Below are positions 1 through 56,675 of a stretch of DNA of 64,000 bases, in pieces. Both the position numbers and the translations under genes were made by a program. Every line of letters begins with the position of its first letter. The first letter of the stretch is position 1. This DNA is from a virus. The stretch lies in the IMG/VR virus record IMGVR_UViG_3300026290_000001. The stretch is one strand, 5' to 3'. The notes beneath the pieces are model-generated. The model was given only the letters and a program-made list of their open reading frames with translations, had not been told where the DNA came from and ran no database searches.

Positions 1-29
1 AAATTGCTATTTATGATATTTTAAAAGAA

Positions 30-2282
30 TTGGATAGTTATAAGTCTGATTGGGATTTAGATGTTGAGAAGGGGATACAGCAAGCAGAAAAAGAACAAGG
101 ATTTGAATTTTCTGATGAGCAAAAAAATATTATTAAAGAATCAGTAAAACATAATGTTGTTAGTATTTCAGGCAAGGCAGGTTGTGTTGATTGTGATACT
201 GAATATTTTAATGGAATTGAATGGATTAAAATATCAAAATATAAAAATAAAGATAAGGTATTACAATATAATAAAGATGGGAGTGCTGAATTAGTTACCC
301 CCTTAGAATATCATAAGTATCCGGCAGAATATTTATGGCACTTTGAAACAAAGTATGGATTAGATCAATGTTTATCAGATGAACATAATGTATATTACAT
401 AACTTCAAAAAATAATTTATATCACAAAACATTTAAGGAAGTTAGAGAAAATCATAATACAACTGGATTTAAAGGTAGATTTATTACTACTTTTAATTAT
501 GAAGGTAAGGGATTACCTTATAATGAATGGGAAATAAGATTAAAAGTAGCAATAAAGGCAGATGGTAGTTTTTATAGTTCAAATCCTTATACTTGTTATA
601 TTAATGTTAAAAAACAAAGAAAAAAAGATAGAATTGAATACTTGTTAGATAAAAATAATATAAATTATGAAATAATGAAAAGTGGGGAAGGATATAATAG
701 ATATAAGTTTACATATTTAGATAACGAAAAAACATACACTAATGAATGGTATAATTGTAATAAGGAACAATTTAAAATCATTTTTGATGAAATATTTTAT
801 TGGGATGGAAATTTTAATGATAGAGATCAATATTATACTTCATTAAAATCGGATGCAAATTTTATTCAATTTGTAGGAACAACATTAGGTTATAAATCAA
901 CTATTCAAATTCAAAACAGATTAAATAGAAAATATAAAACTGCTGGAAAAGAATATACTAGAAAATCAATTGGTTATATAGTTGTTTTTACAAAAAGAAA
1001 TTTAATAGGTTTATGTTCAGACTCAAGAGAGGATCATACAAAAACCCCAATTATTCAATATAAAACATTAGATGGTTTTAAATATTGTTTTACCGTTCCT
1101 TCAGGTATGTTAGTTTTACGTAGAAATAATAAAATATTTATTACCGGGAATTCAGGTAAAACCACTATTTCTAGAGCATTACTAACAATATATAAAAATG
1201 CAAATAAAACAATAGGAACCTGTGCACTTTCTGCCAAAGCTGCACAACGTATCACTGAAGCAACTGGTTTTCAAGCATCTACTATTCACCGTTTATTAGG
1301 AGCAAAAGGATTAAATGAATTTACTTTTAATTATGAAAATCCATTACCTTATGATGTGATTTTAGCAGATGAATGTAGTATGAATAATGCAAGAATTTTT
1401 TATGATTTGATCTCAGCAATTAAACCAGGATCGAAATTAATCATGTCTGGTGATTGTCGGCAGTTACCTCCTATTGGTTTTGGGAACATTTTTAGTGACG
1501 TTCTTGAATTAAAAGAGCAATTTAATATTTATGAACTTACTAAAGTACATAGGCAAGCAGAAAAATCAGGAATATTAACCGATGCTAATCTAATTAGAGA
1601 GGGTATTAATCCTATTCAACAACCTGAATTTAAAATTGTTAGTGGTGAATTGCAAGACATGTACTACATGTTTAGAGATAATAAACAAGCATTAAATGAT
1701 ATTGCAATTAAAATGTATTTAAAATCAATTGAAGAAGATGGGTTGGATGATGTTATAATTATTACTCCAAGAAAAAAAGATTGTATTAATAGTACTATTG
1801 AAATTAATAGAATAATTCAAGATAAATTAATTAGTGACAATAAACCATTTTTAAAAAAGGGTAATTTAAAATTTAAACTTGGTGCAAAGGTAATTCAAAG
1901 AGTAAATAATTATGATAAGAATATTTTTAATGGTGAAATAGGATATATTGTTGATATTTTTAAGGCAAAACCTACAGATGAATATGACAATATGTTTACA
2001 GTACAATATCCTAGTAAAACCATTACCTATTCAAAGAACGAATTGGATCAGATTGATTTAGCATATGCCCTTACGATCCATCTCGCACAGGGTAGCGGAT
2101 ATAAAACTACAATAGTTATTATTGATAATTCTCATTATATTTTACTTGATAGTTGTTTACTTTATACAGGTATTACTAGAGCGAAACAAAGGTGCTTATT
2201 ATTGGCTGAACCTTCAGCATTTAAAAAATGTATTGTTAATAATAAAAGTATTGAAAGGCAAACATGGTTTAAAGAATTTTAA
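30..2282 (+). CDS. RecD-like superfamily I DNA helicase, interrupted by an in-frame intein
   Basis: Walker B-like DECSM, motif SGDCRQLPP, C-terminal motif LAYALTIHLAQGSGY typical of RecD/TraA-like helicases; the Walker A P-loop is split as GKAG / SGKTT by a 323-codon insertion. Confidence 0.75.
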   Translation: MDSYKSDWDLDVEKGIQQAEKEQGFEFSDEQKNIIKESVKHNVVSISGKAGCVDCDTEYFNGIEWIKISKYKNKDKVLQYNKDGSAELVTPLEYHKYPAEYLWHFETKYGLDQCLSDEHNVYYITSKNNLYHKTFKEVRENHNTTGFKGRFITTFNYEGKGLPYNEWEIRLKVAIKADGSFYSSNPYTCYINVKKQRKKDRIEYLLDKNNINYEIMKSGEGYNRYKFTYLDNEKTYTNEWYNCNKEQFKIIFDEIFYWDGNFNDRDQYYTSLKSDANFIQFVGTTLGYKSTIQIQNRLNRKYKTAGKEYTRKSIGYIVVFTKRNLIGLCSDSREDHTKTPIIQYKTLDGFKYCFTVPSGMLVLRRNNKIFITGNSGKTTISRALLTIYKNANKTIGTCALSAKAAQRITEATGFQASTIHRLLGAKGLNEFTFNYENPLPYDVILADECSMNNARIFYDLISAIKPGSKLIMSGDCRQLPPIGFGNIFSDVLELKEQFNIYELTKVHRQAEKSGILTDANLIREGINPIQQPEFKIVSGELQDMYYMFRDNKQALNDIAIKMYLKSIEEDGLDDVIIITPRKKDCINSTIEINRIIQDKLISDNKPFLKKGNLKFKLGAKVIQRVNNYDKNIFNGEIGYIVDIFKAKPTDEYDNMFTVQYPSKTITYSKNELDQIDLAYALTIHLAQGSGYKTTIVIIDNSHYILLDSCLLYTGITRAKQRCLLLAEPSAFKKCIVNNKSIERQTWFKEF
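183..1151 (+). mobile_element. Intein with LAGLIDADG-type homing endonuclease domain, inserted in the helicase P-loop
   Basis: Begins with Cys (CVDCDTEY, intein block A-like) directly after GKAG; ends ...FITGN followed by extein Ser (SGKTT); internal LKVAIKADGSF and IFYWDGNF LAGLIDADG-like motifs; removal restores GKAGSGKTT. Confidence 0.7.
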
Positions 2283-2304
2283 TCAAAAACATAATATAAA
2301 TATA

Positions 2305-2333
2305 TTGACAAACAACAACATAAATAATATACT
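2305..2333 (+). promoter_or_regulatory. Sigma-70-like promoter (TTGACA - 17 bp - TATACT)
   Basis: Consensus -35 TTGACA at 2305-2310 and -10 TATACT at 2328-2333 with 17-bp spacer, upstream of the 2393 ORF and the sigma-like gene. Confidence 0.5.
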
Positions 2334-2392
2334 ATTACTAAGGAGCGAGGCACAGAAAAACAGAATTTTGGATTGATGAGACTATAAATATT

Positions 2393-2578
2393 TTGTCAAC
2401 TAGGGAATTATCTTTAAAAGATTTTGGTGGTATAGAAAGTGTTTGTATAGGAGATTCTGGATATCCACTTTGTACAATTACTTTTAAAAACGGTATAGAA
2501 ATATATGCGGAAAATCAATCTCCACTTTGGGCAGTAGAAGAGAATGATAAAATATTAGATAGTTTAAACCAAAGGTAA
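2393..2578 (+). CDS. hypothetical protein
   Basis: ORF downstream of the predicted promoter, co-oriented with the module. Confidence 0.35.
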   Translation: MSTRELSLKDFGGIESVCIGDSGYPLCTITFKNGIEIYAENQSPLWAVEENDKILDSLNQR

Positions 2579-2619
2579 ATTTCGTTCAAACTTAAAAAGA
2601 AAGGAGGATAAATTTAAAA

Positions 2620-3219
2620 ATGCCAGCACAAATACCAGACACAGAATACATGCTAGACGATTCAAAGAGACAAATTCTAGAAAACAATATAGATTTTATT
2701 CACTATATAACTAACAAACTTTTAAATACCCACGATATATCCAGGGATCAATATGATGATATTTTTCAAGATTGTACTATTGACTTTATCAAATGTTTAA
2801 AAGAATTTGACAAATCTAAGTCTAAAATCACTACTTATACAGGTAAAAAAATGATATCCGAACACAATAGAAGAATGGATAGATACTACAAAAAGAAAAA
2901 TGTTTTAGGCGAATATTTCTTTGATGACATTATCAATAGTGATTCCGAAGATACATTAGAAGTACTTAATGTTTTATCTGCTACATATGATTTTGAAGAC
3001 AATATAATTCATAATATTTTTATTCAAGATATATTAAATCAGTTAGAAAATAAATTTTCATCAAGAAATTTAGAAATTTTTAATTTACATATGAACGGAA
3101 TAAAGCAAACCAAAATAGCAAAGATGTATAATATTACTAGTCAAAGAGTAGGGCAAATTATTAGTAAATTTAGAGAAGAGGCACAAAAGTTAATGATAGA
3201 AAATGGGATATATCAATAG
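2620..3219 (+). CDS. sigma-70 family-like transcription factor (region 4 HTH)
   Basis: C-terminal segment QTKIAKMYNITSQRVGQIISKFREE resembles sigma region 4.2 helix-turn-helix; strong RBS AAAGGAGG upstream. Confidence 0.45.
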   Translation: MPAQIPDTEYMLDDSKRQILENNIDFIHYITNKLLNTHDISRDQYDDIFQDCTIDFIKCLKEFDKSKSKITTYTGKKMISEHNRRMDRYYKKKNVLGEYFFDDIINSDSEDTLEVLNVLSATYDFEDNIIHNIFIQDILNQLENKFSSRNLEIFNLHMNGIKQTKIAKMYNITSQRVGQIISKFREEAQKLMIENGIYQ

Positions 3220-3343
3220 GAGGCAATATAAATGATTTGTAGATTTAAAATATGGTTTAATACTAAAGTTTTAAAAAGAAATGGGAATAAAAATAAAGTA
3301 GTTAAAATCACTAATATTAAATATTATTAAGGAGAATTGAATT

Positions 3344-3688
3344 ATGAAAATTATAAACAATCCTTTTGATACTATAATTCAAGCAGTAGAAGAATTATAT
3401 CCTAATACACATGCACTTATTCAGTTTAATCCAGAATTAAGAGGCAGAGATTATGGAGAATGTGGATGCACCACCTTCCCTACTAACCCAGACGAAGAAA
3501 TATTAATAGACATATCTACTAACATCCCTTTTATTCACATGCCTGAGATTCTTGCACATGAATTAGCACATGTAGTAGTTGGCACAAATGAAGAAAATGA
3601 TCATGGTGATAAATGGCAGGAAGTGTTTGATGCTATTCATGTAAAATATGAAGAGTTAGTAGATTTTGCTGAGAAAGAATATTCGTAA
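3344..3688 (+). CDS. small HExxH zinc-metallopeptidase-like protein
   Basis: HELAHVVVG motif; RBS AAGGAG upstream. Confidence 0.35.
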   Translation: MKIINNPFDTIIQAVEELYPNTHALIQFNPELRGRDYGECGCTTFPTNPDEEILIDISTNIPFIHMPEILAHELAHVVVGTNEENDHGDKWQEVFDAIHVKYEELVDFAEKEYS

Positions 3689-3865
3689 AGGAGGTTAACC
3701 CCATCAAACACATACAAGATATTAGAAAGTTAATCCCAACGGGAAATACATTTTTAAAAACTTACACAAAGCATTATTTAATGTGTCAAATATTAAGTAG
3801 TTTATTATTAATAATTATTACAATTTGTATTGCGGTTTATATTATAAATATAAAAGGAGGGTAAA

Positions 3866-4153
3866 ATGAAAAAAATTTACCGTAATTTTGAATTAGATGC
3901 ACATAAAGAAAAATCTTTAGCAGGTTATCTATTATTATACTTTGCCATTTATGATAAAGACGGTTATGAATGGGTTTGTGGTTTTGAAGATTCTGTTGAA
4001 AAAGTAATTGATAAAATTGACGATCTTGAAGAATGGGTGGATGAATTTTATGAAAATATTAAAAACAAAATTTGCTCAGATTGTTATGAAGAATTAAATG
4101 ATATGTTGTATTGTAAGTTTTGTGATTTAGATTATAATAAATACATAAAATAA
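3866..4153 (+). CDS. hypothetical Cys-rich protein
   Basis: ORF with RBS AAAGGAGGG; CxxC ... CxxC pairs. Confidence 0.3.
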   Translation: MKKIYRNFELDAHKEKSLAGYLLLYFAIYDKDGYEWVCGFEDSVEKVIDKIDDLEEWVDEFYENIKNKICSDCYEELNDMLYCKFCDLDYNKYIK

Positions 4154-4171
4154 AAATAGGAGGGAAACAAA

Positions 4172-4381
4172 ATGTATAAAAATACTCGTACTGCCGAAGT
4201 ATTAGTTAATGGAGAGTGGATTCATATTGAACCAATTAACATTAAAAAGGGTATGGGGTTTAGAATGTTTGAGGAAGATGGGACTCCTGTAACTACAAAT
4301 GGAATTAATTCTTTTATAGCATCTAGTGATGCATTTATCAATAAACATGGTGTAGTTTGCATTAATACATACTCAATATAA
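4172..4381 (+). CDS. hypothetical protein
   Basis: ORF with RBS AGGAGGG. Confidence 0.3.
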   Translation: MYKNTRTAEVLVNGEWIHIEPINIKKGMGFRMFEEDGTPVTTNGINSFIASSDAFINKHGVVCINTYSI

Positions 4382-4422
4382 AAGTAACATTTGGTATTAA
4401 ATTATAAAGATATGGAGGCAAA

Positions 4423-4758
4423 ATGAACACATCTTATTTTGCAAAATACAAAGGAGAAAACGCGGTTTCAATAGCAGGTAAATGTCCAGACTGGTTTAAG
4501 GGTAGACAATATAAAAAACTTGCCCCAAAATATAATTGGTGGAAGAAATGGCATGATGAAAAATTAAGTGAAGAATGGTATATAGAGCAATATTACAAAA
4601 CAATATTAAATAAACTAGATGCTAAAAAAGTTTATGAAGAACTAGGTAAAAATGCAGTTTTACTTTGTTGGGAAAAATCGGGAAAGTTTTGTCATCGTCA
4701 TTTAGTTGCCGAATGGTTTAAAAAAGAATTAGGAATTGAAGTTGATGAATTAAAATAA
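4423..4758 (+). CDS. DUF488-like protein
   Basis: C-terminal LLCWEKSGKFCHRHLVAEW resembles the DUF488 conserved C...E...CHR motif. Confidence 0.35.
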   Translation: MNTSYFAKYKGENAVSIAGKCPDWFKGRQYKKLAPKYNWWKKWHDEKLSEEWYIEQYYKTILNKLDAKKVYEELGKNAVLLCWEKSGKFCHRHLVAEWFKKELGIEVDELK

Positions 4759-4790
4759 TTTTAAACAATAAAGTTTTAAAAGGAGGAATA

Positions 4791-5069
4791 ATGACAAAAC
4801 AATACTTTAAAATCATATCATTAAATAATACCAGAGCAATAGAATTAGAAAGATACGGAGATTTCAACGAAGAATATCATCAGAAATATATTGGTCAAAT
4901 AGGCTATATGATAGGTCACTCTATATCAGATAAAAGTATATTTAAAGATTTTAAATGTTTGATCACTAAAACAGATAATATGGGTAGGCCATTAGATGGT
5001 GATTGGTTCCATAAAGACGATTTGGAAAAAGTGAAAAGAAAGGAGGAAATATTAATATGGCAGAAATAA
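4791..5069 (+). CDS. hypothetical protein
   Basis: ORF with RBS AAGGAGG. Confidence 0.3.
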   Translation: MTKQYFKIISLNNTRAIELERYGDFNEEYHQKYIGQIGYMIGHSISDKSIFKDFKCLITKTDNMGRPLDGDWFHKDDLEKVKRKEEILIWQK

Positions 5070-5133
5070 TTGCCATAAACCATAAACATCTAATTAAAAC
5101 AATAAAATAAATATGGAGGTAATAAATTATTGA

Positions 5134-5373
5134 ATGGATGAAATAATAGAAATGCTAGAAGAAAGGCATACACCATTAGAAATAGTTGAAATTTTGTATG
5201 GTTTAGATAAGTTTGATATTGACAATTATGCTGTCGAGCATGATATATGCCCTGTATGTTTAGGAGAATTGGTTATGCGTAGGTATAAAGAACGTAGACC
5301 TGATTTTTGGGGATTCCCCGCTTATGAGGAAATGTGTGATTTAGTTTGTAGTAGATGTGGAGAGGTATTTTAA
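5134..5373 (+). CDS. zinc-ribbon protein
   Basis: CPVC ... CSRC Cys pairs. Confidence 0.3.
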   Translation: MDEIIEMLEERHTPLEIVEILYGLDKFDIDNYAVEHDICPVCLGELVMRRYKERRPDFWGFPAYEEMCDLVCSRCGEVF

Positions 5374-5391
5374 AGGAGGGATTATTACATA

Positions 5392-5592
5392 TTGAATATT
5401 ACATTGTATTCTACTGATTGCCCTAAATGTAAAATATTAAAACAAAGATTGGATGAAAAAAATATTAATTATGAAATATGTAAAGATGTAAATTTTATGT
5501 TATCTAAGGGGATTAAGTCTGTGCCAATGCTAGAAGTGAATGATGAAATGATGAATTTTGACAAAGCAATATTTTTTGTTAAGGAGATATAA
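5392..5592 (+). CDS. glutaredoxin/NrdH-like redoxin
   Basis: N-terminal CPKC redox motif in a 66-aa protein immediately upstream of nrdD. Confidence 0.5.
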   Translation: MNITLYSTDCPKCKILKQRLDEKNINYEICKDVNFMLSKGIKSVPMLEVNDEMMNFDKAIFFVKEI

Positions 5593-7347
5593 ATGGATAG
5601 TAAATCGATTATTGACGAATATATAAAGAAAACAGATTGGAGAGTAAATGAAAATTCAAATTCACCTTATAGTTTTGGTGGATTAAATAAACATATAATT
5701 GCTGAAATATCAAAAGATTATTGGCTAAGGAATGTTTATCCCAAAAGAATAACTAATACTTATCTTAATGGGAAAATGCATATTCATGATCTTGGAGGAA
5801 TGACGTTATATTGTTGCGGATATTCTCTTAAAGATATACTAATGATGGGTGTACAAGGAGTACCTAATATTCCTACTTCTGCCCCTGCTAAACATTTTGA
5901 TGCTGTACTTAATCAATTAAGTAATTTAGTTACTGTGTTTCAAAATGAAATTATGGGTGCAGTAGCTTTTAATTCTTTTGATACATTACTTGCACCATTT
6001 GTTAAAAAAGATAATTTAACTTTTAAAGAAGTTAAGCAAAGTATGCAAAATTTTATTTTTAGTATTAACTCTAATTCTAGAGGTGGTGCGGAACCTGCTT
6101 TTTCAAATATTACATTTGATCTCACACCACCAGATGATTTATTAAATGAAAATGCAATTATTGGTGGAGATTTTGTTGGTTTTACATATAAGGATTGTCA
6201 AAAAGAAATAGATATGATAAACAAAGCATTTTATGAATTAATGCTTAAAGGAGATGCTAAGAAACGTCCGTTTGCATACCCAATACCCACATATAATATC
6301 CATTCTCGTTTTGATTGGAATAATCCTAATAATGATTTGTTATGGGAAATGGCAGGTAAATATGGTTATCCATACTTTGCAAATTTTTTAAATAGTGATA
6401 TGAACCCAAGTGATATAAGAAGTATGTGTTGCAGACTTAGTATTAATTTAAAAGAATTATCAAGAAAAAATGGTGGGTTATTTGGTGCAGGAGATTCTAC
6501 TGGCTCTATTGGTGTAGTTACAATAAATCTGCCAAGAATAGCATATTTAAATAGTAGTAATAAAAAGAAGTTCTATAAAGATTTAGAACGCACTTTAAAT
6601 ATTGCCAAAGATAGTCTTGAAATTAAACGAAAATGGTTACAAGAAAATATTGTTGATAAAAATATGATTCCTGCCTTTTGTACATATGTAGGCACTTTAA
6701 AAAATCATTTTAGTACAATTGGTGTAGTTGGTATGAATGAAATGTGTGAAAATTTTTTTGGGAAAGATATTGATATATTAACTTCGCAAGGAAAAGAATT
6801 TGCAATTGAAGTTGGTAATTTTATTCGTAATAAACTTATACAATATCAAGAAGAAACTGGCAACCTTTATAATTTTGAGGCTACCCCTGCCGAGTCTACA
6901 TGTTATAGATTAGCAAAAAAAGATTGTGAAGAATTTGATGATATTATTATTAGAGGAACAAGAGAAGCACCTTATTATACAAATTCTTGTCATATGCCAG
7001 TTAATAAAGTTAAAAATATCCATCAAGTATTTGAACATCAAAATGATTTGCAAATTCTATTTACGGGTGGAACCGTAATTCATATATTTATGAATGGTGC
7101 TATTAGCGGACAACAAGCGAAAAGCATTATTAAAACAGTTTGCGAACAATATAAAGTTCCATATGTAAGTATTTCACCATTAAATAGATATTGTCCTAAT
7201 CATAATTATATCGAAGAAAAAGTTGATTATTGTCCTATATGTAATACGCCAGTTGAAATGTATCAAAGAATTACGGGTTATCTTAGGAGAGTTGAATTTT
7301 TTAATGATGGTAAAAAATCAGAATTCAGAGATAGAGTACAATTATAA
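5593..7347 (+). CDS. nrdD: anaerobic ribonucleoside-triphosphate reductase (class III)
   Basis: C-terminal glycyl-radical motif RITGYLRRV preceded by Cys-rich zinc ribbon CPNHNY...CPICN; size and gene order with nrdG. Confidence 0.8.
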   Translation: MDSKSIIDEYIKKTDWRVNENSNSPYSFGGLNKHIIAEISKDYWLRNVYPKRITNTYLNGKMHIHDLGGMTLYCCGYSLKDILMMGVQGVPNIPTSAPAKHFDAVLNQLSNLVTVFQNEIMGAVAFNSFDTLLAPFVKKDNLTFKEVKQSMQNFIFSINSNSRGGAEPAFSNITFDLTPPDDLLNENAIIGGDFVGFTYKDCQKEIDMINKAFYELMLKGDAKKRPFAYPIPTYNIHSRFDWNNPNNDLLWEMAGKYGYPYFANFLNSDMNPSDIRSMCCRLSINLKELSRKNGGLFGAGDSTGSIGVVTINLPRIAYLNSSNKKKFYKDLERTLNIAKDSLEIKRKWLQENIVDKNMIPAFCTYVGTLKNHFSTIGVVGMNEMCENFFGKDIDILTSQGKEFAIEVGNFIRNKLIQYQEETGNLYNFEATPAESTCYRLAKKDCEEFDDIIIRGTREAPYYTNSCHMPVNKVKNIHQVFEHQNDLQILFTGGTVIHIFMNGAISGQQAKSIIKTVCEQYKVPYVSISPLNRYCPNHNYIEEKVDYCPICNTPVEMYQRITGYLRRVEFFNDGKKSEFRDRVQL

Positions 7348-7349
7348 AT

Positions 7350-7802
7350 ATGGAAATTCTTATTAAAGGTATTTTTCATGAACGCACAGAAGATGCTCCT
7401 TTTATTGGGGCATTAATCTGTGCAAATAATTGTAAATTTAATTGCCCTAATTGCTATAATAAAGAATTAAAATTTTCACCTAGTTATTATATAAATGATA
7501 ATGAAATAATTCAAGAGGTAAAATCCAATCTATTTAATAAAGGTATTATTCTTGCAGGATTAGAATGGACTTTACAAGCAGAAGAAATGTTTAGGTTAAT
7601 TGAATTAGCATTAAATAATCAATTAGAAATTATTTTGTATACTGGAATGGATTATGATGTATTAATTAAAAAGTTTCCTGAGTTATTGAATTATCATATT
7701 TATATAAAAACAGGCAAGTATATAAAGGAATTATCAACAGATGATAATATTCAATTTGGAGTTAAATTAGCAAGTTCAAATCAAAAAATATATAAAATAT
7801 AG
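7350..7802 (+). CDS. nrdG: anaerobic RNR activating protein (radical SAM-like)
   Basis: Cys cluster CANNCKFNCPNC near N-terminus; directly downstream of nrdD. Confidence 0.6.
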   Translation: MEILIKGIFHERTEDAPFIGALICANNCKFNCPNCYNKELKFSPSYYINDNEIIQEVKSNLFNKGIILAGLEWTLQAEEMFRLIELALNNQLEIILYTGMDYDVLIKKFPELLNYHIYIKTGKYIKELSTDDNIQFGVKLASSNQKIYKI

Positions 7803-7987
7803 AAAGGAGGGAAATAACCATACCACAATTCATTCTCTGTAAAAAAACAACTTGTCCTAACCCGAACATGAAAATCATCCTTACAATGATTTTATAAATT
7901 TATGTGATGATAATGATGAGTATAGATATTTTGTGAAGATTCGTGAAACTGACAAAGTGATTAAATTAGATGTAAATAAAAAAGAAG

Positions 7988-8431
7988 ATGAGGAGAAAAT
8001 TGATGAATATTAAAATTAAATACTTTAATGACCAACTAGAAAAAATACAAAAAATATCTCAAGGAGATTGGATTGATTTACGTTCATCTATTAATTGTGA
8101 ATTAAAACAAGGAGAATTTAAATTAATACCACTAGGTGTTGCTATGGAATTACCAAAAAATCATGAAGCACATATTGTTCCTAGGTCAAGTACTTATAAA
8201 AATTTTGGAATTATTCAAACTAATCATAAAGGCGTAGTTGACGAATCTTATTCGGGCAATAACGATCAGTGGTTTATGCCTGTTATTGCCTTTAGAGATA
8301 CAAAGATAAATATGAATGACAGAATATGTCAATTCAGGATTGTAGAAAAAATGCCAGAAGTTAATTTTATTGAAGTTGAAGAATTAGGTAATAAAGATAG
8401 GGGAGGGCATGGAAGTACAGGTATTCAATAA
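7988..8431 (+). CDS. dut: dUTP diphosphatase (dUTPase)
   Basis: dUTPase motifs PRSS and [10 protein letters not shown]-terminal Gly-rich RGGHGSTG. Confidence 0.7.
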
Positions 8432-25735: not shown

Positions 25736-26335
25736 ATGAAAGGATGTATAATAATGAAAATTAAAAACTTATCTTATCTGTTTATTGGTTTGCTAGTTGG
25801 GTGTTTATTTCCCATTCAATCTTTATTTGCCGAACAACCTATTACATTAATTATCAATGGTAAAACAATTACTAATGCTTCACCACAAATAGTTTCAGAT
25901 AGAACGTATGTACCTTTGAGGGTAATATCCGAAGAATTAGGTGCAACAGTTGAATGGGACGGAGTAAATAGGGTAGTTAGGGTTAATAGTGGGGATGGAC
26001 AAAAAATTGAAAAGATTAATCAAAATCAAACTCAAAACAATAATGATAATAGTAATGTGGAGAGCAACCCTAGAGATAATATCAATTATATTAGTAGTGA
26101 TGATATGGAAAAATATTACGAAAGAGATACAAATAAAGGTTTTGTAAAAAATCGTTGGGTAGATGGTAAATATTTTATTGACTATGATAGAAAAATTACA
26201 CGTTTTGAAGATTATGAATATTATTATGATAGAGAAAGAGATATATTTTATTGGGCAGATTATAAGGCAATTTTAATCTTTGGAGAAACAATAAAAGATT
26301 ATCCTAAATATAAATTTAACCAAATACAGCAGTAG
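25736..26335 (+). CDS. secreted lipoprotein with copper-amine-oxidase-N-terminal-like domain (moron)
   Basis: Signal peptide with lipobox LLVGC; domain ITLIINGKTITNASPQIVSDRTYVPLRVISEELGATVEWDGVNRVVRV; opposite strand to the surrounding late genes. Confidence 0.5.
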   Translation: MKGCIIMKIKNLSYLFIGLLVGCLFPIQSLFAEQPITLIINGKTITNASPQIVSDRTYVPLRVISEELGATVEWDGVNRVVRVNSGDGQKIEKINQNQTQNNNDNSNVESNPRDNINYISSDDMEKYYERDTNKGFVKNRWVDGKYFIDYDRKITRFEDYEYYYDRERDIFYWADYKAILIFGETIKDYPKYKFNQIQQ

Positions 26336-29189
26336 AAGAAATAGCATCTCCTTCAACTAAAACTCTTTTTGCTCCATACCAACTACTACCAACATAAACT
26401 TCATCACCTAATAAAACTTGATTAGCACTTATTTGTAAATGTGGATAAGTAGAACCACCTGCTGAAATAATAACATTATGACCAGAAGTAGTGTACATTA
26501 AAATTTCTTTATTACTACTATTTTTTCCACCTATTTGCAAAGAATTAAATGCAGTAAAATCTCCAGCAGTTATTTGATTAGCATATATTTTACCAGTAAT
26601 AACATAATCTTTTCCTAATTGTGTAGTTAAGGCAGTATTAGTAACATAGTTTGCTAAATCACCAGAATATACTAAATCTGTTGGTTTATCTATCACTTTG
26701 CCCCATGCTATATAAGCATTCGGACCCATTTGAATATTGTCACCAACAATTAACTCATTAACTTTTAGTTTATTTGCACCAACACTACCATTGGACAAAT
26801 AATTACCATTGATTTTATTTAAAGAATCCAATACATTAGTACCTGCAATTTTTAAACTCGAACAATCTATATTACCTTGAATATCTGCTGATGTTGCCAC
26901 TAAGTGACCTGAAAGGGAAACCCTGAAGGGTGCATAATTATAGTTACTACTACCTAAATATATTCCATTCGTGTCGGCTTTAAATATGGCATTACCCGAT
27001 CCTATCTGCATATGTCCTTTTAATATTAAATTACCATCAATGTCAGCATATAATTTTTTGTTCCATTGAGAACCTTCATATTTTTCAATAGTGAATCCAT
27101 CTGTTGCGTTAGATATGGAACGTACTTTATTGTCTGAACGGGTAATTGTTAGTCCATCTGTTATATCTATTTTTACACCATTATAGAGTTTATTTTCTAA
27201 GAGTACTCCTTCTGCTAATTCTGAAACTGGTAATCCACCATCCGTTATTTGTAGGGAAAGACCTGAAATTTTTACTCCCGTTTCATTGACGGTGAAGAAT
27301 TTTTTACCTTCGTTGTTTGATGCGTCTATTATGAGGTTTTGACCAATTAATAAAGTACCTAAAATTCTTTCTGCTACAATCCGATCTGGCAAAATCGCAG
27401 TATGAAATGTATTACCTCCATCTTGGGTAAGAGTAATTACACCATGCATCATACGAATAAATTTATCAGAATCGTTCGGATCTATAATACTGATGCCTCT
27501 TCTATCAGTAATTACCGTCTCATTACCACAAGCAATTACTGCTTGTTTAGTAGCATCCCATGCATTATTTATAATTTTCTGTACTTCATTATTAGCATTT
27601 TCACCCAATGACCATTTATATTTTTCCATATCAACAGTAGTAGATGTGCTCACTGCTTGATTTATTCTCTTTAAAAACAAATCATAATCACGATTAATAT
27701 TTTCAATATTACTAATTACAAGATTGACACTATTTTCTTCAAAATCAAAATCCATTTCAATAATTTTTGCCATAATGCTAATATCAAAAGTTTCATGGTC
27801 AATTCTAACCAAATCACCTAAAATCAATTTACCTTTATCTAATTGACAATCTTCATCTAAATATTGATCAATATTTATCGAATCTATCTCTATTAATATT
27901 TGTGGTGTATTTATTTTTACAAACTGTTCTTTACCCCAAGATAATAATTCTTTAGCATCAAAGATGTATTGATTTTCAACAGTTTTTACAACTATATAAT
28001 CAGTAAGTTCAAATAATTCAGATTGAGTAAAATTACTTTCCATACGCAATGTGTCACCAAGAGAAATTATATTAGATTGTACAGAATTTATTTGTGATTG
28101 TTTATTACTAATTTCAGTGTTTTTATTATTTATTTCATTTTGTTTGGCAGATTGTTGTGCTAATAAATCATAAGCACTTTGACCCTTAGATTGTGCCAAA
28201 TCTATATTGTCTTGAATTATTATTAATTCAGATTGTAGTGTAATTAATTGACTATTTAAAATTATTAGTTCTGCTTCATATGTTTCTAATTGAGATAAAT
28301 AACCTTGATATATACCATCATTATCTTGTAATTTTTTATTATAAGCCAATAAAGCATGACATAATTCATTGGACATATAATGACTACTTTGAATTACATT
28401 GCCTTGCTCATCTTCTGTATATGGATAAAGAAAATATCCAAAGTTATCTAAATAGTCAGTACCAGTTATATTGTATTCATTTATACTTAATCCCGATTTG
28501 CCATAAATTTTTAAACGAGTGCAAAAATCTGAATCATCCAAAGATTGATTTAGTGATTTCAAATAGATACCATAATTAAAATTTAAACCAGTGTAGTTTC
28601 CGATTTGGTCTAATTTATAAAAACTTATCTTTTTATTTTCAGTATCCCATTTAATAATTGCACTAAATGTTTCTGAAACTGTAAATATTGCATCTAGTAC
28701 CGTAGCAGAAGTAATTTCTAACATGCGAAATTTAGTGTCGAACTCTGAATTCACGTACCCCAAAGACCATGTAGTTTCCTTTAACAAATCGGTCATTATT
28801 TGTGATAATGTTTTGGATTCAACTTTATATCCTCTAATTAAATTATCTTTTAATTTAAAGGGGAGAGAAAAACATTCCACTTGAAACGAATCTATATCTT
28901 CACCCATATTTTGAATTGGTTTTTGTATAATAAACCATTCAATTTTATTATTATATTCAAATTTTATTAGGTATTTATAACGAATCATATTAAGATGTTT
29001 GTTATAAACTAATTCGTTCTCTATTTCAATATATAAAGGAAGATCAAACGATAATTCTGAAATATTACCAAGTTTACAGTTATATTGTATATTAAATGCC
29101 TGATTAGATAAATCTGCAATAATATTTCTATCAGGTTTTGTAAGATATAGTTTTGGTTTTTGTAGTAAGTCTATTATAAATATCACCAC
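26316..29189 (-). CDS. tail-associated lysin / baseplate hub (Tal-like) protein
   Basis: 957-aa protein downstream of tape measure and Dit-like gene; central coiled-coil. Confidence 0.4.
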   Translation of the reverse strand: MVIFIIDLLQKPKLYLTKPDRNIIADLSNQAFNIQYNCKLGNISELSFDLPLYIEIENELVYNKHLNMIRYKYLIKFEYNNKIEWFIIQKPIQNMGEDIDSFQVECFSLPFKLKDNLIRGYKVESKTLSQIMTDLLKETTWSLGYVNSEFDTKFRMLEITSATVLDAIFTVSETFSAIIKWDTENKKISFYKLDQIGNYTGLNFNYGIYLKSLNQSLDDSDFCTRLKIYGKSGLSINEYNITGTDYLDNFGYFLYPYTEDEQGNVIQSSHYMSNELCHALLAYNKKLQDNDGIYQGYLSQLETYEAELIILNSQLITLQSELIIIQDNIDLAQSKGQSAYDLLAQQSAKQNEINNKNTEISNKQSQINSVQSNIISLGDTLRMESNFTQSELFELTDYIVVKTVENQYIFDAKELLSWGKEQFVKINTPQILIEIDSINIDQYLDEDCQLDKGKLILGDLVRIDHETFDISIMAKIIEMDFDFEENSVNLVISNIENINRDYDLFLKRINQAVSTSTTVDMEKYKWSLGENANNEVQKIINNAWDATKQAVIACGNETVITDRRGISIIDPNDSDKFIRMMHGVITLTQDGGNTFHTAILPDRIVAERILGTLLIGQNLIIDASNNEGKKFFTVNETGVKISGLSLQITDGGLPVSELAEGVLLENKLYNGVKIDITDGLTITRSDNKVRSISNATDGFTIEKYEGSQWNKKLYADIDGNLILKGHMQIGSGNAIFKADTNGIYLGSSNYNYAPFRVSLSGHLVATSADIQGNIDCSSLKIAGTNVLDSLNKINGNYLSNGSVGANKLKVNELIVGDNIQMGPNAYIAWGKVIDKPTDLVYSGDLANYVTNTALTTQLGKDYVITGKIYANQITAGDFTAFNSLQIGGKNSSNKEILMYTTSGHNVIISAGGSTYPHLQISANQVLLGDEVYVGSSWYGAKRVLVEGDAISSTAVFG

Positions 29190-29208
29190 CTTTCTAAATA
29201 ATTAAATA

Positions 29209-29982
29209 CTAATAAAATCTGAATTCATATTTCATGTCCAAAAAACACTTGCCATCAACCTTTAGTCTATTTTTACCATAAGGCAAACTCATATAATAAT
29301 TATTTATAAGTTTGTCATATCTATAAATAGGTGGAGGTGTGCTTTCTAACGAACTTTCTATATTTCTTCTCTTACAATCGATTTGTACAATTTCATTATC
29401 TTCTAATTCTGAAAATCCAAATTCTTTACCGTTAGATAAATTTAAAATAGATACTTTACCTTTTTCTAGTTTTTTAATTGTTATTATAGGTAAAACATCC
29501 ACATCTCCTAAATTATTAAATACAAAATGATTAGTACTTTCTTTGCTAAAATCATAAGATTCTAAATAGATATGCGAATGTGCATAAGAACTCTTACATC
29601 TAAATTGACAAGTTATATAACCTTGATTTATACCATTATGAGATATTTGTGGATCAGAAATTAAAATACAATAATAAATTTTATCAGGATTTTCCGAAAA
29701 ACGCATTTTAGCATAATATGGTTTTCTTAACCATCGTTTAACCCTTTGTAAAGATTCTTCCGTCCATCCCTTTTTAAAAGCAAAAACTAAATCCAGTATT
29801 AAAGGTTTTGGTTTAACTTCTTGAAAATAAGGTTCATTTCTACCACGTATTTCAGTTTCAATTATTTCTACTTCTGCTACAAAAGGTTCTTCTGTCATTC
29901 CAGAAGAAAGATTACAATTTATAATATCGTAATCATATGAATATTCATTATCAAATTCAAAATACGCAGAATCTTTTATCAT
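29209..29982 (-). CDS. distal tail protein (Dit-like)
   Basis: Position immediately downstream of the tape measure gene. Confidence 0.35.
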   Translation of the reverse strand: MIKDSAYFEFDNEYSYDYDIINCNLSSGMTEEPFVAEVEIIETEIRGRNEPYFQEVKPKPLILDLVFAFKKGWTEESLQRVKRWLRKPYYAKMRFSENPDKIYYCILISDPQISHNGINQGYITCQFRCKSSYAHSHIYLESYDFSKESTNHFVFNNLGDVDVLPIITIKKLEKGKVSILNLSNGKEFGFSELEDNEIVQIDCKRRNIESSLESTPPPIYRYDKLINNYYMSLPYGKNRLKVDGKCFLDMKYEFRFY

Positions 29983-30030
29983 TGCTGTTCACCACCTTAA
30001 AACAAAACAGAAGGGGAGTAGATACCCCTT

Positions 30031-33000
30031 CTATTTACCAAGTTTACTCATTCCATTATTTATCCGTTTAAAGAAACCATCAACACCTTTTTCTGTGTTT
30101 TCTACTTTATCTATATGAACATTCATATTATAAGTTACGTTACCTCCACCAGCAAACTGTAATTGTGGAGTTGCATTGGCAATTAATTTTTGCATATTAG
30201 GAATTAGATATCTTTCAATATTTTTTGGTGGAATTAAAATTTCATTTGTTAGTGCTTTGATTATATGTTCATTGGCACTGGTATTGAAAAATTTATTAAA
30301 TTTATCAACAAAACCAAATGATTTATCTCCGACTATACCACCTTCATGATATATCCTAATTTGTCTTTTCTTTTCATCCCATTCTACTTGATGACCTAAT
30401 GCTTCTGCAACTTCCCTGATAGAAAGATATGTTGTTCCGTCAACATTTTTAGCTGGTTTAAATCTCTTTCCACCAATTATAATTGTCTGGTTTTGTCCAT
30501 AACCTTCCCAATCAGCAGATGCTCCTAAAAGTGATGCAAGAAGTCTAGATTGCATAATTGCTCTATTATTGACAAGTTCAAAAGAACCAGAATCCAATAC
30601 TGCCATAGGTTGTCTACCAGATGTGTTAGAACTAGGATTAGTACTTTCCAAAGAGGGAATAGACATATTCGCACTATTTGCACTTTCTAATAATGCTAAT
30701 GCCTGTTCCATTTTTGTAATTAAATTAGCACTAATACTATTACCAATAAACTCTAAATTGCCATTTACAAAAGTTTTAAATTCTGCAAAAGCTGATTTAA
30801 CTTTATCAATATTACCATTTATAATATCAGAACGAATTTGGGCAAACTTTTGTTCGTCATTAATTAAATCGTCATAGTGTTTTTCGGTTTCTCTTTTAAT
30901 TCTATCCAACCTATCTTTTTCTAAGTTAAGTTTAGTATCTTCTGCTTTTTTCTTTGCATCAATATCTTTTTTATAAGCATCTAATTGGTCTTTAAGATTT
31001 TCTTTACGTAAATCAATTGAATGGTCATGTTGATATTCATTAATTTCATCCTCTTGTTCTGCCAATTGTTTTATTAATTCTGCTTTTTTTGCTTTTGCTT
31101 CAAAAGAATCATCTAATGATAAAACGTCAATATTTTTTTGAGTTTCTAATATTGCTTTTTGTTTCTTTTCCAATTCACGATTATAATCATGCTCATTTTC
31201 TTCTCTATCTAGTGCTTTGATTCGTGCATTGATGTAATCTTCAAATTGTTTTAATTCATCATCAAGATTATCAGTTGCTTGTTTATGACGTTTTTCTTCT
31301 GCTTTCATTTGTTCATCTATGGCATCTAATGCAACTTGTTTTTGTTTTTCATAGATATTTTTATAGATAGAGATGATTTCGTCTGCTATGGATGCTAGTT
31401 GTTGTTTGATAGAGAATTGGAGATTGATATATTCTTGCTTTAGTTGTTTTAAAGTATTTATCAATTCTTGTTTTTGGTCAGCATTGTATCTATCACTTGC
31501 TAATTCCTGTTGAACTAATGCTATTTTATTTCTTAAAATATTAACACTTTCAATATTAATTTGATTTTCTCGTTCTAATAATGCAATATATTCAGCAGAC
31601 CCTTTTTCTAATAAAGACATTTCATTTCTAAGGTTTTCTTTTTCTTGAGTTAAATCAGATAGTTTAATATCTTCAATTGATAAATTAATTTTAAATTCAG
31701 CAAAACTCAAATCTCTTATTTCATCATCTATACCTTGAATTTCTTTTTTAAGACCTTCTGCACTATCTTTGAGTTTTTTAAAATCTTCAATCGCTTTTGC
31801 AATTTTTTCATTCTTTATATCAACTTCAATTGTATCTGTTGAACCAGACATTATTTTGTTAAAGTCAGATTCAGACAACCCTTTTCCAATATAAGACCGT
31901 AGATTCTGTTCTGCTTGTTTTAGACTTGAATCAAAAGTGTTATTTATATCTAAAAGCAGGTTTTGTTTTTTTTGTAATAAAAGTATCATTTGGTCATATA
32001 TTTCTGTTTTTTGTTCAAAAGAAGTTACATCGTCAAGTTGATCTTTAAAAGTTTCTATTTCTCTGTTAATTGCTTCGAGTGCTTCTTTCCAAACTTCAAA
32101 GGTTTTGGTAAAGGATTTGGAGGATTTAGAGGAAGAACCATATCTATCTAAAGAACTAGATACATTAAGATTTTTAAACTTAGATGCCATATCTCTAGTG
32201 GCTTTTTGAAATTCAGCATAATCTTTAAGCATCTGGTTTGTTTTAGAATCAACAGCTAAAGCACTACCGCTTTCAATACGTCTAAAATCACCCATACTCG
32301 AAGGATTTACTAATAGCGTACCTGCATTAAAAGCATCAAAATATTTCGCCCATTCAGAACCTAATTTGCTTATTAATTGCAATTCAATTGCTTCTCTTGC
32401 TTGAGCTAAATTTGCCCATTGAGTTACATTATTGCCATATAATTTTGATAAATGATTAAATAATTCAGCATGGTTATTTTTAACACTGTTATAGAAATTA
32501 ATATCTTGTTCTTTAGTTTTTATAAAGGCATCATAAATTGCATTTTGGTAATCTTCTGTGTCTTTGACAAGTTGTTGTCTTAATTTGGACTCATCTTCAA
32601 GTAGAGGAATATAATCTTGATAATCAGATATTATTTTTTCTATTGAAGATTGAGTAAGACCTTTGTCAGATAATTCATCAAGAAAACCTTTTAGGTCTTT
32701 TATTTTAGATACATTGTCTTTGTAAGTGGTTTGAAAATCGGAGAGAGCTTTTTCATATTGATTTAAAGTATTAATCGCATTTTTTGAATCAATAGTAGAA
32801 GGATATAGTGATGCAAAATTAATAGCAAATTCTTTTAAATCGGGATTACCTTTAGTTAATGTATTAATTAAATTAGTTATTTCCTTAGATGTTTTTGATA
32901 ATCCATCTCTATTTTTCTTAGAATCATCGCCACTATTAATAGCAGAAGTTAATTTATTATATTGTTCAATTAAAGAATCTAAATCAGAATTAGCAACTTT

Positions 33001-36000
33001 AGTAGCAAAATCACTTAATGCTTGTTGTTGAGTTTCTATATCTTCGGGTTGTAAAGCAAGTGATTTAGCAAATTCGGAAACAACTAATTTGGCAGAATCA
33101 GACATTTCCTTACCATTAGATTCTAAAGTTTTAATGGTTTCTTGCGCTTCGTATTCTAAATATTTTTGTTTGTTTTTAGAAAGATTATATATTTCTTCTT
33201 GTTGTCTTTGATATATATCTTTCCAATCTTCTAATTTTCTGAGGTTATACCATTCAGTTCCTTTATTATTATCAATCATTAATTGATATTCTTCTATACG
33301 TTTTTCTGCGGTGTCTCTGAGGTTAATTGCTTTTTTAATTTCTTTATTAGTTTGTTTATCTGATGCTTTAACTTTAAATTCTAATAATTCCTGTTCTTTT
33401 TTTAATTCTTCATCTAAAGCCAAAATTCTTAGTTTAATTACTTCTATAGAATCAGAATAAGCTTCTCCTTCAAGATTAATACCAGTAGCAGATACACCAT
33501 ATTTATCAACAAGTTCTTTTTGAATTTCTAATAATCGTTTCTTTTCTTCGGTAGTTGCGGTAAGATTTTTCTCTTTATCTTTAAGAGTTTCATATTCAGA
33601 AGTTAATTCTTTTAACCCCTCTTTTTGTTGTTTTAAATTTTGTATTTGATTTTGACTTGTTTCTATTTGTTTTTGTTGTTCTTCTCTATGTTTTTTAGTA
33701 GCATTAGTGAGTCCATAAATAGCAACCATTGCAGTTGTTGCAACAACTGCCAATAATCCTAATGGATTTGTTGCCATCGTTGCTTTTAAAAAATTCATTG
33801 CAGCAGTAAGTCCTTGTGTTGTTGTCAATAATGCTAAAAGGGAAATATTGGCAGCATTAGTAGTAGTAATGAATGCGATCATTGCTTTTATACTAGAAGT
33901 AATAGCAGTTCCTTTCCAAATTAAAAAAGCCGTAGTTAAAAGTGCTACAACAACTTCTGCATTTCCAAGAACTTCAACTAAAGTTGTCATAGCAATTACA
34001 AAACCTTTAATTACGTCAGAATTTAATGCTTCTTGCCATTTCCCCATTACTGTGTTTTTGAATTGTGCAGATTTTGCCTCAATTGATTCCATATACTTTT
34101 CGTTTTCAATTAAAGCAGAATTTGTCGAATTTAAGGCAGTAGTTAGAGAGTCCTGCATATCCTTGTAATTAGTCATCATAGCCATTACTATGTTTCCTTG
34201 TCTTTTTCCTGCGACAAGTTCCGACATATTAGCCCTCTGTACGTCTGTAAGTTTTTCCCAAACTAAGGCTAATTCTAACATAATGTCATAGGTGGATTTA
34301 AAGGTATTTTCATCTTTGCGAATTTGAATACCAATATTTTTAAATGATTCTTCAAGTTTAGGAAGATATTCTAAAACATCTTCACCATCTTCGGATACAC
34401 CTCTAAGTCTCATTGAAATTGTTTTGAGGGCTGTTCCTACGGTTGCTGGGTCTTGTACCACTGCGTTAGCAGCAGTTATCAATGCAACTGCTTCTTCCAT
34501 TGTATTGCCAGCAGAATATAATGAAGCAGCAGATCTACGCATAGCTTCACCAATACCTGCACTTGAAATTGCAAAATTATTTCCAACTTCATTATAAATA
34601 TCTACAATTTTCTGTATATTTCTACCTTCTTCATCTACTGCAACACCAAAACCTTTTACTGCTGAAATAATTGCTAGACTAGCTTCTTCTACTCCAATAT
34701 CACCTACATTAGAATATAATAATGCTTGTTTTGCTAATTGAGCAGATTGTTCAAGGGAATAACCCAAACGGGCAAACTCTGTCGTACTATTAATAACTTC
34801 CACACTAGTTTTTGCCAAATTTCGACCTATAGCATTTGCCTCAAGTGAAAATTTATTTAATGTTTCTCTAGTTTCGTCAGTAACTTTATTCAAATTTGTG
34901 AGAGCAGTATCTATGTCGATGATACTTTGAATACCATTTTTTACTGCTGTTATTGTTTTGATTATTACATCACCGATGAGCAACCAACTAGCGAATTTCT
35001 TGCCCGCTTCAAGTAAACTTTGTCCAAAAAGTCCAGTATATTTATTAGCATCTTGAATTTCTTTCTTATAAATACTTGTGGTAGTAGAAATTTCTCTAAG
35101 TTTAGAATTGGCTTCTGCCATATTCTTACTGAAATTTTTATTAGTTGGATCAAAACCACGTATTTGAGATTCAAGAGTATTTAAAGCACTTAAATTATCA
35201 CCAACAATAAACTTTCCATCTACACCTCTCATGCCCCTGATTCTATTTAATAAATCTTGTTGAGCAAGAGATTGTTTATGTATTTCACTTGTTAACTTTT
35301 GCTGTTGAATAATATCTTTATCAATATTTTTTGCTTTTATTGTACCAACATTCCGTAATGTTTGTTCTCTAATTTTTTCAAGTTGAATTAATTTTTCAGC
35401 TTCTATTCCTTCTATTTTGGTTTTTTCACCAATGTCAATTTTTCTTCTAATAATATTATTATATTGACCTTGATGATAGGTTATTTGTTTAGTTAATTCT
35501 TTTGCCTGTTCTGTATCTTTATTTCCTAAACTATGATAATCTTGTCTTAATTTATTTAATTGTGTTAAATGCTGTTTGGCTTCATTAAAATTTTTATTTT
35601 GTGTATTTTTAATAGTTTCTAAATTAGTTTTTTCAAGATTATCATAATAATCTGCCATTTTAACCAGTTCATCTGGTTTCTTTGTCATATCACCTACAGT
35701 TTCTTTAACTCTCTGTGACCAATATTTGGACTGTTCTTTATTTAATTTTTCTAACTCTGTACGTTGTTTTTTATAATTAATAGTAGTTTCTGTTACTTTT
35801 TTATATACTTCGTCTGTTCCTGCTTTTAAATGTTCAATTTGTTTTACACTCTCACCATTTGCTTTTGTCCACTCTTTAGTTCTTTCAGTAATTTTTGCTT
35901 CAGCATTTTCAATTTGTACATATTTTTCTTTATACTTGTCTAAACCCTTACTATCAACATCAATTTTTATTTTAGGATTAACTCGTTGTTCAATATCTTT

Positions 36001-56599: not shown

Positions 56600-56675
56600 T
56601 GGAGCCGAGTATAGGATTTGAACCCATAATCTGTTGTTTACAAGACAACTGCCTTATCAATTTGGCTAACCCGGC
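56600..56675 (-). tRNA. tRNA-Thr (anticodon UGU), CCA encoded
   Basis: 76-nt cloverleaf folded by hand: 7-bp acceptor stem, T-arm with TTCAAAT loop, anticodon stem GTTGT/ACAAC with loop CTTGTAA. Confidence 0.7.

Follow-up and report, generated by a model that had tools for sequence, protein, structure and literature searches.

A probable mobile intein with a LAGLIDADG endonuclease domain in the P-loop of a RecD2-like phage helicase

The window analyzed here, a 64,000-nucleotide stretch of viral DNA (IMG/VR record IMGVR_UViG_3300026290_000001), carries near its start a helicase gene whose ATP-binding P-loop is interrupted by an in-frame insert, which is very probably a mobile intein. The gene lies on the plus strand in frame 3, which is open from base 3 through the TAA stop codon at 2280-2282 and translates as ...KHNVVSISGKAG-CVDCDTEYFN...(323 residues)...NKIFITGN-SGKTTISRALL.... 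The insert covers positions 183-1151 on the plus strand (323 codons, 969 nucleotides), starting with Cys1 (TGT, 183-185), ending with Asn323 (AAT, 1149-1151) and being followed by Ser+1 (TCA, 1152-1154); when it is taken out, the canonical Walker A sequence GKAGSGKTT is regained. The parts of the gene, with the insert divided as predicted below, are:

3-182, plus strand: N-extein, the final 60 codons of the helicase's N-terminal part, from the translation, in a frame open to the 5' edge of the window
171-182, plus strand: first half of Walker A, GKAG, at the end of the N-extein
183-1151, plus strand: predicted intein, Cys1 to Asn323, 323 residues
183-482, plus strand: predicted N-terminal HINT lobe, residues 1-100, from conservation, the profile match to 6zgq and the hhalign alignment to AceL
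183-224, plus strand: block A, CVDCDTEYFNGIEW
357-398, plus strand: block B, GLDQCLSDEHNVYY, with Ser65, His68 and Val70
483-1037, plus strand: predicted LAGLIDADG homing endonuclease domain, about residues 101-285
534-572, plus strand: LAGLIDADG motif 1, IRLKVAIKADGSF, with Asp127
771-815, plus strand: LAGLIDADG motif 2, FKIIFDEIFYWDGNF, with Asp208
1038-1151, plus strand: predicted C-terminal HINT lobe, residues 286-323, from conservation and the alignments to Bethlehem RDF and AceL
1077-1124, plus strand: block F, FKYCFTVPSGMLVLRR, with Cys302 (1086-1088), Pro306 and Arg313/314
1131-1151, plus strand: block G, KIFITGN, with Thr321, Gly322 and Asn323
1152-2282, plus strand: C-extein, the remaining helicase, starting with the +1 nucleophile Ser, with the stop codon TAA at 2280-2282
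1152-1166, plus strand: second half of Walker A, SGKTT

A first-pass annotation of the sequence had proposed these limits of the insert, its Cys and Asn ends and the restored GKAGSGKTT, all of which are borne out by the translation, and the two motifs it quoted are present, LKVAIKADGSF within residues 118-130 and IFYWDGNF within residues 197-211. The 750-residue open reading frame and the TTG start codon at base 30 that it reported are artifacts of the window edge; the TTG is not a start codon, as the frame is open from base 3 with no stop before it.

The host protein is, as judged from its domain matches, a RecD2-like SF1B helicase. It matches the Pfam domains AAA_30, AAA_19, SH3_13, and UvrD_C_2 as well as PHROG 4412, and it reaches 331.6 bits with the NCBIfam model TIGR01448 (RecD2), a score under the 500-bit cut-off because the gene is both truncated by the window edge and interrupted. 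Full-length helicase homologues additionally bear HHH_RecD2. The intein-less homologues are about 750 residues long with the P-loop around residue 367, which places about 306 helicase codons upstream of the window and gives an expected precursor of about 1,070 residues.

The conceptually spliced protein retrieves thousands of helicases, and the nearest of these (84 to 94% identical) are all without the intein. The closest three, with 737 to 749 residues, are P0115 (94% identical), P0116 (90%), and P0117 (87%), which read GKAGSGKTT, GRAGSGKTT, and GKAGVGKTS at the site; the alignment to P0115 (749 residues, reading KHNVVSISGKAGSGKTTISRALL) covers 100% of the spliced protein. At the DNA level, the spliced window sequence matches the intein-less contigs L003, L004, and L002 with 92.6%, 87.3%, and 84.6% identity, each in a single ungapped high-scoring pair running straight across the junction, and the insertion site in L003 and L004 is surrounded by GGCAAGGCAGGT on the left and TCAGGTAAAACC on the right. 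Presence or absence of the 969 nucleotides is thus a precise, in-frame polymorphism. The genes for RecJ-like DHH, Pol III alpha, and the helicase come in this order in both L002 and L004, and downstream in L004 are NrdD and NrdG, as in the window.

Two observations concern these alleles. The codons at the insertion site of L003 are GCC GGA AGT GGC, compared to GCA GGT^TCA GGT in the window (here and below, ^ marks the insertion point), and the more distant L004 equals the window; the difference in L003 might alter susceptibility to a homing endonuclease. A further intein-less helicase, P0121 (76% identical to that of the window), is labeled by NCBI as coming from a Crenarchaeota/Thermoproteota metagenome-assembled genome, which is probably a mis-binned phage contig, since all its relatives have a phage context.

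The predicted fold of the insert is a HINT domain with a double-motif (monomeric) LAGLIDADG domain inserted. The AlphaFold2 model, built from 70 relatives, has a mean predicted local distance difference test score of 95.9, and the best Foldseek match is the TliVMA intein (E value of 2.6e-14), with further matches to PI-SceI, PhoVMA, and PI-PfuI. The middle domain resembles the LAGLIDADG enzymes I-DmoI and I-Tsp061I and shows the two helices, each ending in an acidic residue, in a pseudo-dimeric alpha/beta fold; Asp127 and Asp208 are each kept in 68 of 70 relatives. The family profile reaches the AceL intein structure (PDB ID 6ZGQ) with an E value of 1.1e-6, and AceL NrdHF is the closest solved HINT domain both by sequence and by structure. 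The sole PHROG match of the insert, phrog_32482 (“PhoH-like”), evidently stems from an intein of the same family included in that profile. The earlier proposal of a LAGLIDADG intein is supported by this fold together with the conserved junction residues, and by the precise in-frame insertion that is absent from alleles of 84 to 93% nucleotide identity; in the alignment to intein-less homologues, the junction is exact and the segment is no native helicase domain.

The initial homology search with the insert found 114 relatives (best E value of 6e-96), and an exhaustive scan of 1.84 billion representatives (clusters at 50% identity) gave 2,116 matches with E values of ≤1e-3, of which 1,061 remain at ≤1e-10 and 513 at ≤1e-30. 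Related inteins are borne by 186 GenBank phage records. The relatives share both ends, starting with CVDxDTE[Y/F]F and finishing with ...RRxxxIFITGN, after which come Cys, Ser, or Thr and, in most cases, GK[S/T/D]. For the 214 family members with both junctions present and an extein of at least 100 residues, the exteins form 33 clusters that are unrelated to one another, the biggest being the RecD2-like helicases with 77 members. The host families include the terminase large subunit, PhoH, deoxynucleoside monophosphate kinase, guanylate kinase, DnaC-like and DnaB proteins, RecA, ABC, and AAA_24/25 proteins, and the insertion point is nearly always G-x-x-G^[C/S/T]-G-K. This preference agrees with a homing endonuclease that has the conserved coding sequence of the P-loop within its target. 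For 51 of the 214 members, the closest intein is located in another extein cluster, and one pair of inteins is 75% identical across two host families. The nearest intein to that of the window, in P0235, is 78% identical, and its helicase C-extein is just 37% identical.

The family is also found at some sites other than P-loops, most of those examined being Gly-rich loops followed by Cys or Ser. Such sites lie in small DNA-methyltransferase-like proteins, at the S-adenosylmethionine-binding motif I (EPx^CGxGH...NPPY), in TSCPD domains, in S-adenosylmethionine synthetase, at the loop GGGAF^SGKD, in the RtcB protein of Bacillus phages, and in a TOPRIM primase of mycobacteriophages (examples are P0054, P0061, P0089, P0090, P0096, P0106, P0110, and P0111 and the loci L008 and L009).

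The conservation of the putative splicing residues was counted in 70 close relatives and, separately, in a further set of 145 representatives. The junction residues expected of an intein are all in place, namely Cys1, Ser65-x-x-His68, Asn323, and Ser+1. Cys1 (A:1), which would provide the N-terminal nucleophile of a class 1 intein, is Cys in 69 of 70 relatives and in 144 of the 145 further representatives. In block B, position B:7 (Ser65) is Ser in 52, Thr in 15, and Cys in 3 relatives (Ser or Thr in 67/70), His68 (B:10) is invariant (70/70), and B:12 (Val70) is hydrophobic throughout the family (V, C, F, I, or L) and never Trp. Cys302 (F:4), Arg313 in block F, Thr321 (G:5), and Asn323 (G:7) are also found in 70/70, and Arg314 in 68/70. 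The +1 residue of the 145 representatives is C, S, or T, with Cys in most family members and Ser in the window copy. Two features of class 3 inteins are therefore present, Cys at F:4 and Thr at G:5, and two are not, since position 1 is not free of Cys, Ser, or Thr and B:12 is not Trp. The invariant Cys302 and Thr321 alongside Cys1, without the C-terminal histidines, read as a mixed class 1/class 3 signature of the family. The only member with Gly at position 1 is P0020 (480 residues, GVDCDTEFFN...), in which the catalytic residues are otherwise all present; the Gly may stem from a sequencing error or mark a dead copy, or it may be a natural sign that the intein can do without Cys1.

Two relatives have been studied in the laboratory. 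The RDF intein of mycobacteriophage Bethlehem, in a metallophosphoesterase named gp51 by Kelley et al. 2016 (PMC5050341) and gp52 in AY500153, aligns to the family profile with an hhalign probability of 98.3% (E value of 2.3e-14, 275 columns). It reads HEGNHD^CSWTN...EVWCLRVPNGRFFIEDGGKIHLTGN^SRARDY, and its segment VWCLRVPNGRFFIEDGGKIHLTGN aligns without gaps to the C-terminal HINT lobe of the window intein; in BLASTP, only the last 27 residues match significantly (10/27 identical). Both inteins are full-length (317 and 323 residues) and share Cys1, the block B motif [T/S]xxH, a LAGLIDADG endonuclease, the TGN^S end, and the F:4 Cys, which lies in VWC in Bethlehem RDF and in YC in the window, with a Pro four residues on in both. 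They differ in that the Bethlehem RDF intein sits in the phosphoesterase motif HEGNHD^C instead of a P-loop and that its host is an actinobacteriophage. As shown by Kelley et al., its splicing in Escherichia coli goes to completion, the G316H mutant splices more slowly with a buildup of precursor, and the endonuclease was inactivated because it is toxic in E. coli (PMC5050341).

The second relative, AceL NrdHF, is a naturally split class 3 intein (PDB ID 6ZGQ) described by Hoffmann et al. 2020 (PMC7891396), whose full sequence from the supplement of that paper aligns to the family with an hhalign probability of 96% (E value of 3.8e-9). Its segment HCLSVPGKSFVVTDEHGNRSVTGN aligns to the C-terminal HINT lobe of the window intein such that Cys124 corresponds to Cys302, Thr144 to Thr321, V-P to V-P, and T-G-N^S to T-G-N^S. 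AceL starts with Ala, has Met at B:12 and no block F or G histidine, and splices with a half-time of about 4 min by a class 3 route proven by mutagenesis; the residue C124 (F:4) is essential, the T144A mutant splices ten times more slowly, G145H is inactive, and the F:4 thiol is modeled 3.0 Å from the scissile carbonyl (PMC7891396). In contrast to the window intein with its Cys1, AceL is thus obligately class 3, and it is split, its halves being separated by a free-standing GIY-YIG endonuclease gene, whereas the window intein is in one piece and contains its LAGLIDADG domain. AceL is located in a ribonucleotide reductase beta-subunit gene, nrdHF, and not in a P-loop.

These mutants bear on the penultimate Gly322 (G:6), which the first-pass annotation had noticed correctly but had taken to be uncommon and a possible disturbance of splicing. 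Gly is found here in 67 of 70 relatives, 131 of the 145 further representatives end in TGN, and the change to His slows splicing in one studied homologue and abolishes it in the other, so that the Gly is native to the family and required, and no defect.

Homology to two inteins that splice makes it very likely that the window intein splices as well. The helicase would be made as a precursor of about 1,070 residues, inactive because its P-loop is split, from which the intein would excise itself, joining Gly(-1) to Ser(+1) and forming the ATP-binding loop GKAGSGKTT. Once released, the intein or its endonuclease domain would cut intein-less alleles at the P-loop coding sequence, and repair of the cut allele would copy the intein in; as the target encodes a near-universal motif, relatives have moved into many unrelated nucleoside triphosphatases as well. 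Splicing would start with an N-S acyl shift at Cys1, which we somewhat favor as the residue that attacks first, because about 213 of 215 family members have kept it and because position 1 is variable in inteins that have no use for it (Ala in AceL, Pro in MP-Be), suggesting that Cys1 is in use. Cys302 and Thr321, held by His68, would also be needed, either for a thioester relay to Ser+1 or as organizers of the active site, and Asn323 would cyclize without a block F or G histidine, possibly helped by Arg313 and Arg314.

Class 3 chemistry is the strongest alternative to this order of events, although less probable than it. Here, Cys302, activated by His68 and Thr321, would attack the Gly(-1) carbonyl first, and the N-extein would pass from a block F branched thioester to Ser+1 before Asn323 cyclizes, while Cys1 would be kept for packing, for a redox disulfide with Cys302, or by a constraint of the homing site. 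The invariant Cys302 and Thr321 are two of the three residues of the class 3 “WCT” signature (PMC2807308), and the closest solved HINT domain belongs to AceL, a proven class 3 intein (PMC7891396) that also does without Trp at B:12 and both C-terminal histidines. Ser at +1, as in the window copy, is typical of class 3 inteins, which are mostly found in P-loops of helicases and ATPases and for which a phage origin has been proposed. WCT inteins starting with Ser or Cys are said to splice by the class 3 route, reportedly in work of Tori and Perler from 2011. Three WCT inteins beginning with Ser or Cys are given by Tori et al. 2010 (PMC2807308). Against class 3 chemistry stand the retention of Cys1 at a position that otherwise drifts, the missing Trp at B:12, and the Cys at +1 in most family members, which is rare among class 3 inteins; furthermore, the homologous Bethlehem RDF intein is handled as class 1 by Kelley et al. 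(PMC5050341).

A tentative third view, with slightly less weight again, is a two-thiol route, in which a Cys1 thioester is followed by a Cys302 branched thioester and transfer to the +1 residue, or a family that is the progenitor stock of class 3 inteins. Members of that class such as AceL NrdHF may then have arisen by plain loss of Cys1, and if so, class 3 chemistry evolved more than once. With Cys1 and the class 3 Cys/Thr pair but no C-terminal histidines, the family offers a natural test bed for the origin of class 3. A disulfide between Cys1 and Cys302 could also make the splicing of replication proteins oxygen sensitive in phages of anaerobes.

Several points weigh against the reading of the window locus as a mobile, splicing intein. 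The residues that commonly help class 1 splicing, Asp at F:4, a block F His and a penultimate His, are replaced by Cys302, Gly308 (the block F position that is commonly His), and Gly322. Such helper residues are common in class 1 inteins, but they are not obligatory. The window does not reach the 5' part of the gene, which makes the intact precursor of about 1,070 residues a prediction, and splicing of the window protein is argued by analogy with Bethlehem RDF and AceL NrdHF. Pfam-A and NCBIfam scans of the insert at E values of ≤1 match no model at all, intein and LAGLIDADG models included, and phmmer searches against PDB sequences gave only one spurious match for the insert (and chance matches only for its C-terminal 37 residues), so that its recognition depends on profiles and structure prediction; the silence of the curated models reflects poor model coverage and is no evidence against intein membership. 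Endonuclease activity and the target site are suggested by conserved residues. The GC content differs modestly, with 23.8% in the intein and 28.5% in the extein, values too similar to date the invasion. No intein-containing allele of the window's own helicase lineage was found, and homing in this lineage is for that reason deduced from presence and absence. With these points considered, a mobile intein composed of a HINT domain and a LAGLIDADG endonuclease inside the P-loop of the phage helicase is still very probable.

That the intein is decaying or dead for splicing, leaving the phage with a non-functional helicase gene, is improbable. The lack of the canonical Asp at F:4 and of both C-terminal histidines would be in line with decay, as would the fact that no curated intein hidden Markov model recognizes the insert. 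However, the “missing” residues are absent family-wide, including in two members that splice efficiently, and the window copy has an unbroken frame of 323 codons with all family-invariant residues and intact LAGLIDADG acidic residues, in an extein that is 94% identical to an intein-less homologue and retains all helicase motifs. A permanent lineage-specific helicase domain, or an intron with an in-frame LAGLIDADG reading frame removed from the RNA, has hardly any probability left, for although group I introns also bear such reading frames and Pfam calls no domain in the insert, a retained insert would split the P-loop and prevent ATP binding, the HINT fold flanks the LAGLIDADG domain on both sides and has the Cys1 and Asn-Ser junctions, 33 unrelated host clusters bear the same insert, always with C...N^[C/S/T] junctions, close alleles lack it precisely, and the Rfam scan of window positions 1-2600 gave no matches, including to group I and group II intron models.

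The preference of inteins for the P-loops of replication ATPases, and their carriage by phages, are well documented (PMC4760082, PMC5050341), and this general picture, with P-loop preference and phage transport, is unchanged by our findings. There, the DnaB, MCM, RFC, and phage terminase large subunit inteins lodge in Walker A, as in the window, and phages are thought to help spread the P-loop inteins of replication and packaging ATPases (PMC4760082, PMC5050341). The “classic” P-loop site, as given by Kelley et al., is GK^T, between the invariant Lys and Ser/Thr (PMC5050341), whereas the site of the family, G^[C/S/T]GK, lies two residues upstream. In the available part of the survey of Novikova et al. 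2016 (PMC4760082), the table of top bacterial hosts does not include RecD2-like helicases. In comparison to the solved endonuclease inteins TliVMA and PhoVMA (PDB IDs 7QSU, 7QSS, and 7QST), PI-SceI (1VDE), PI-PfuI (1DQ3), and PI-PkoII (2CW8), the window intein is 8 to 15% identical and shorter (323 versus 360 to 540 residues), and it probably has no extra DNA recognition region as found in them.

The window intein is a clean example of a large phage intein family with studied relatives, and no new type of element. Modestly new are the size of the family, its invisibility to curated models, and the mixed class 1/class 3 signature. As curated intein models miss the family, genes like that of the window, of which there are hundreds in phage genomes and metagenomes, are prone to be misread as odd long helicases or hypothetical proteins; with a profile from the family, inteins would be recognized in at least 33 host proteins that are not related to each other. 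Because the helicase could not bind ATP before the intein leaves, splicing would gate phage replication. From this large, mostly metagenomic family, compact inteins can also be drawn that accept Cys, Ser, or Thr at +1 and Gly at -1.

A counterpart from a cultured phage is found in the Enterocloster phage PMBT24, whose “exodeoxyribonuclease V” (WDQ45496.1, OQ326496.2) is a RecD-like helicase of 1,108 residues. Its intein is 46% identical to that of the window and occupies the same P-loop position (LNAGAG^CVDSETEYFN...IFITGN^CGKT), and the neighborhood, with Pol III alpha, a sigma factor, the helicase, and NrdD, is like that of the window. It differs in the Cys at +1, where the window has Ser, and in its divergent helicase, and the intein is unannotated in the record. 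More distant relatives with the C1...YC...GN pattern are the annotated “intein-containing topoisomerase primase” of mycobacteriophage Turj99 and the ribonucleotide reductase intein of Staphylococcus phage Romulus. Unannotated inteins of the family are present in the public records of PMBT24 (L005, OQ326496.2), CB457P1 (L001, OP172753.1), and KIL4 (L006, KU130129.1). The DnaB-like gene of CB457P1 (823 residues) is labeled “hypothetical protein”, and the primase/helicase coding sequence of KIL4 is given as a join of two pieces, as though the insert left at the RNA level.

The window is from a tailed phage of a low-GC (28.7%), probably anaerobic host. No second copy of the insert turned up in a tblastn search across the whole window, and no close DNA-level relative was found among GenBank phages. 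Features beyond the helicase gene include:

5593-7347: NrdD
7350-7802: NrdG-like activase
26316-36075, minus strand: tape-measure protein (2,013 residues) and YomG/Prophage_tail protein
56600-56675, minus strand: single tRNA-Thr

In a megablast search of window positions 1-8000 against GenBank phages, only 96 nucleotides at the 3' end of the intein match. This segment (1070-1165), which comprises blocks F and G and the first 14 nucleotides of the C-extein, shares 86.5% DNA identity with the intein of the DnaB-like gene of the Enterocloster phages CB457P1, CB473P1, and CB473P3, with an overall protein identity of the inteins of just about 46%; constraint or recombination could account for this local conservation of the DNA at the 3' junction.

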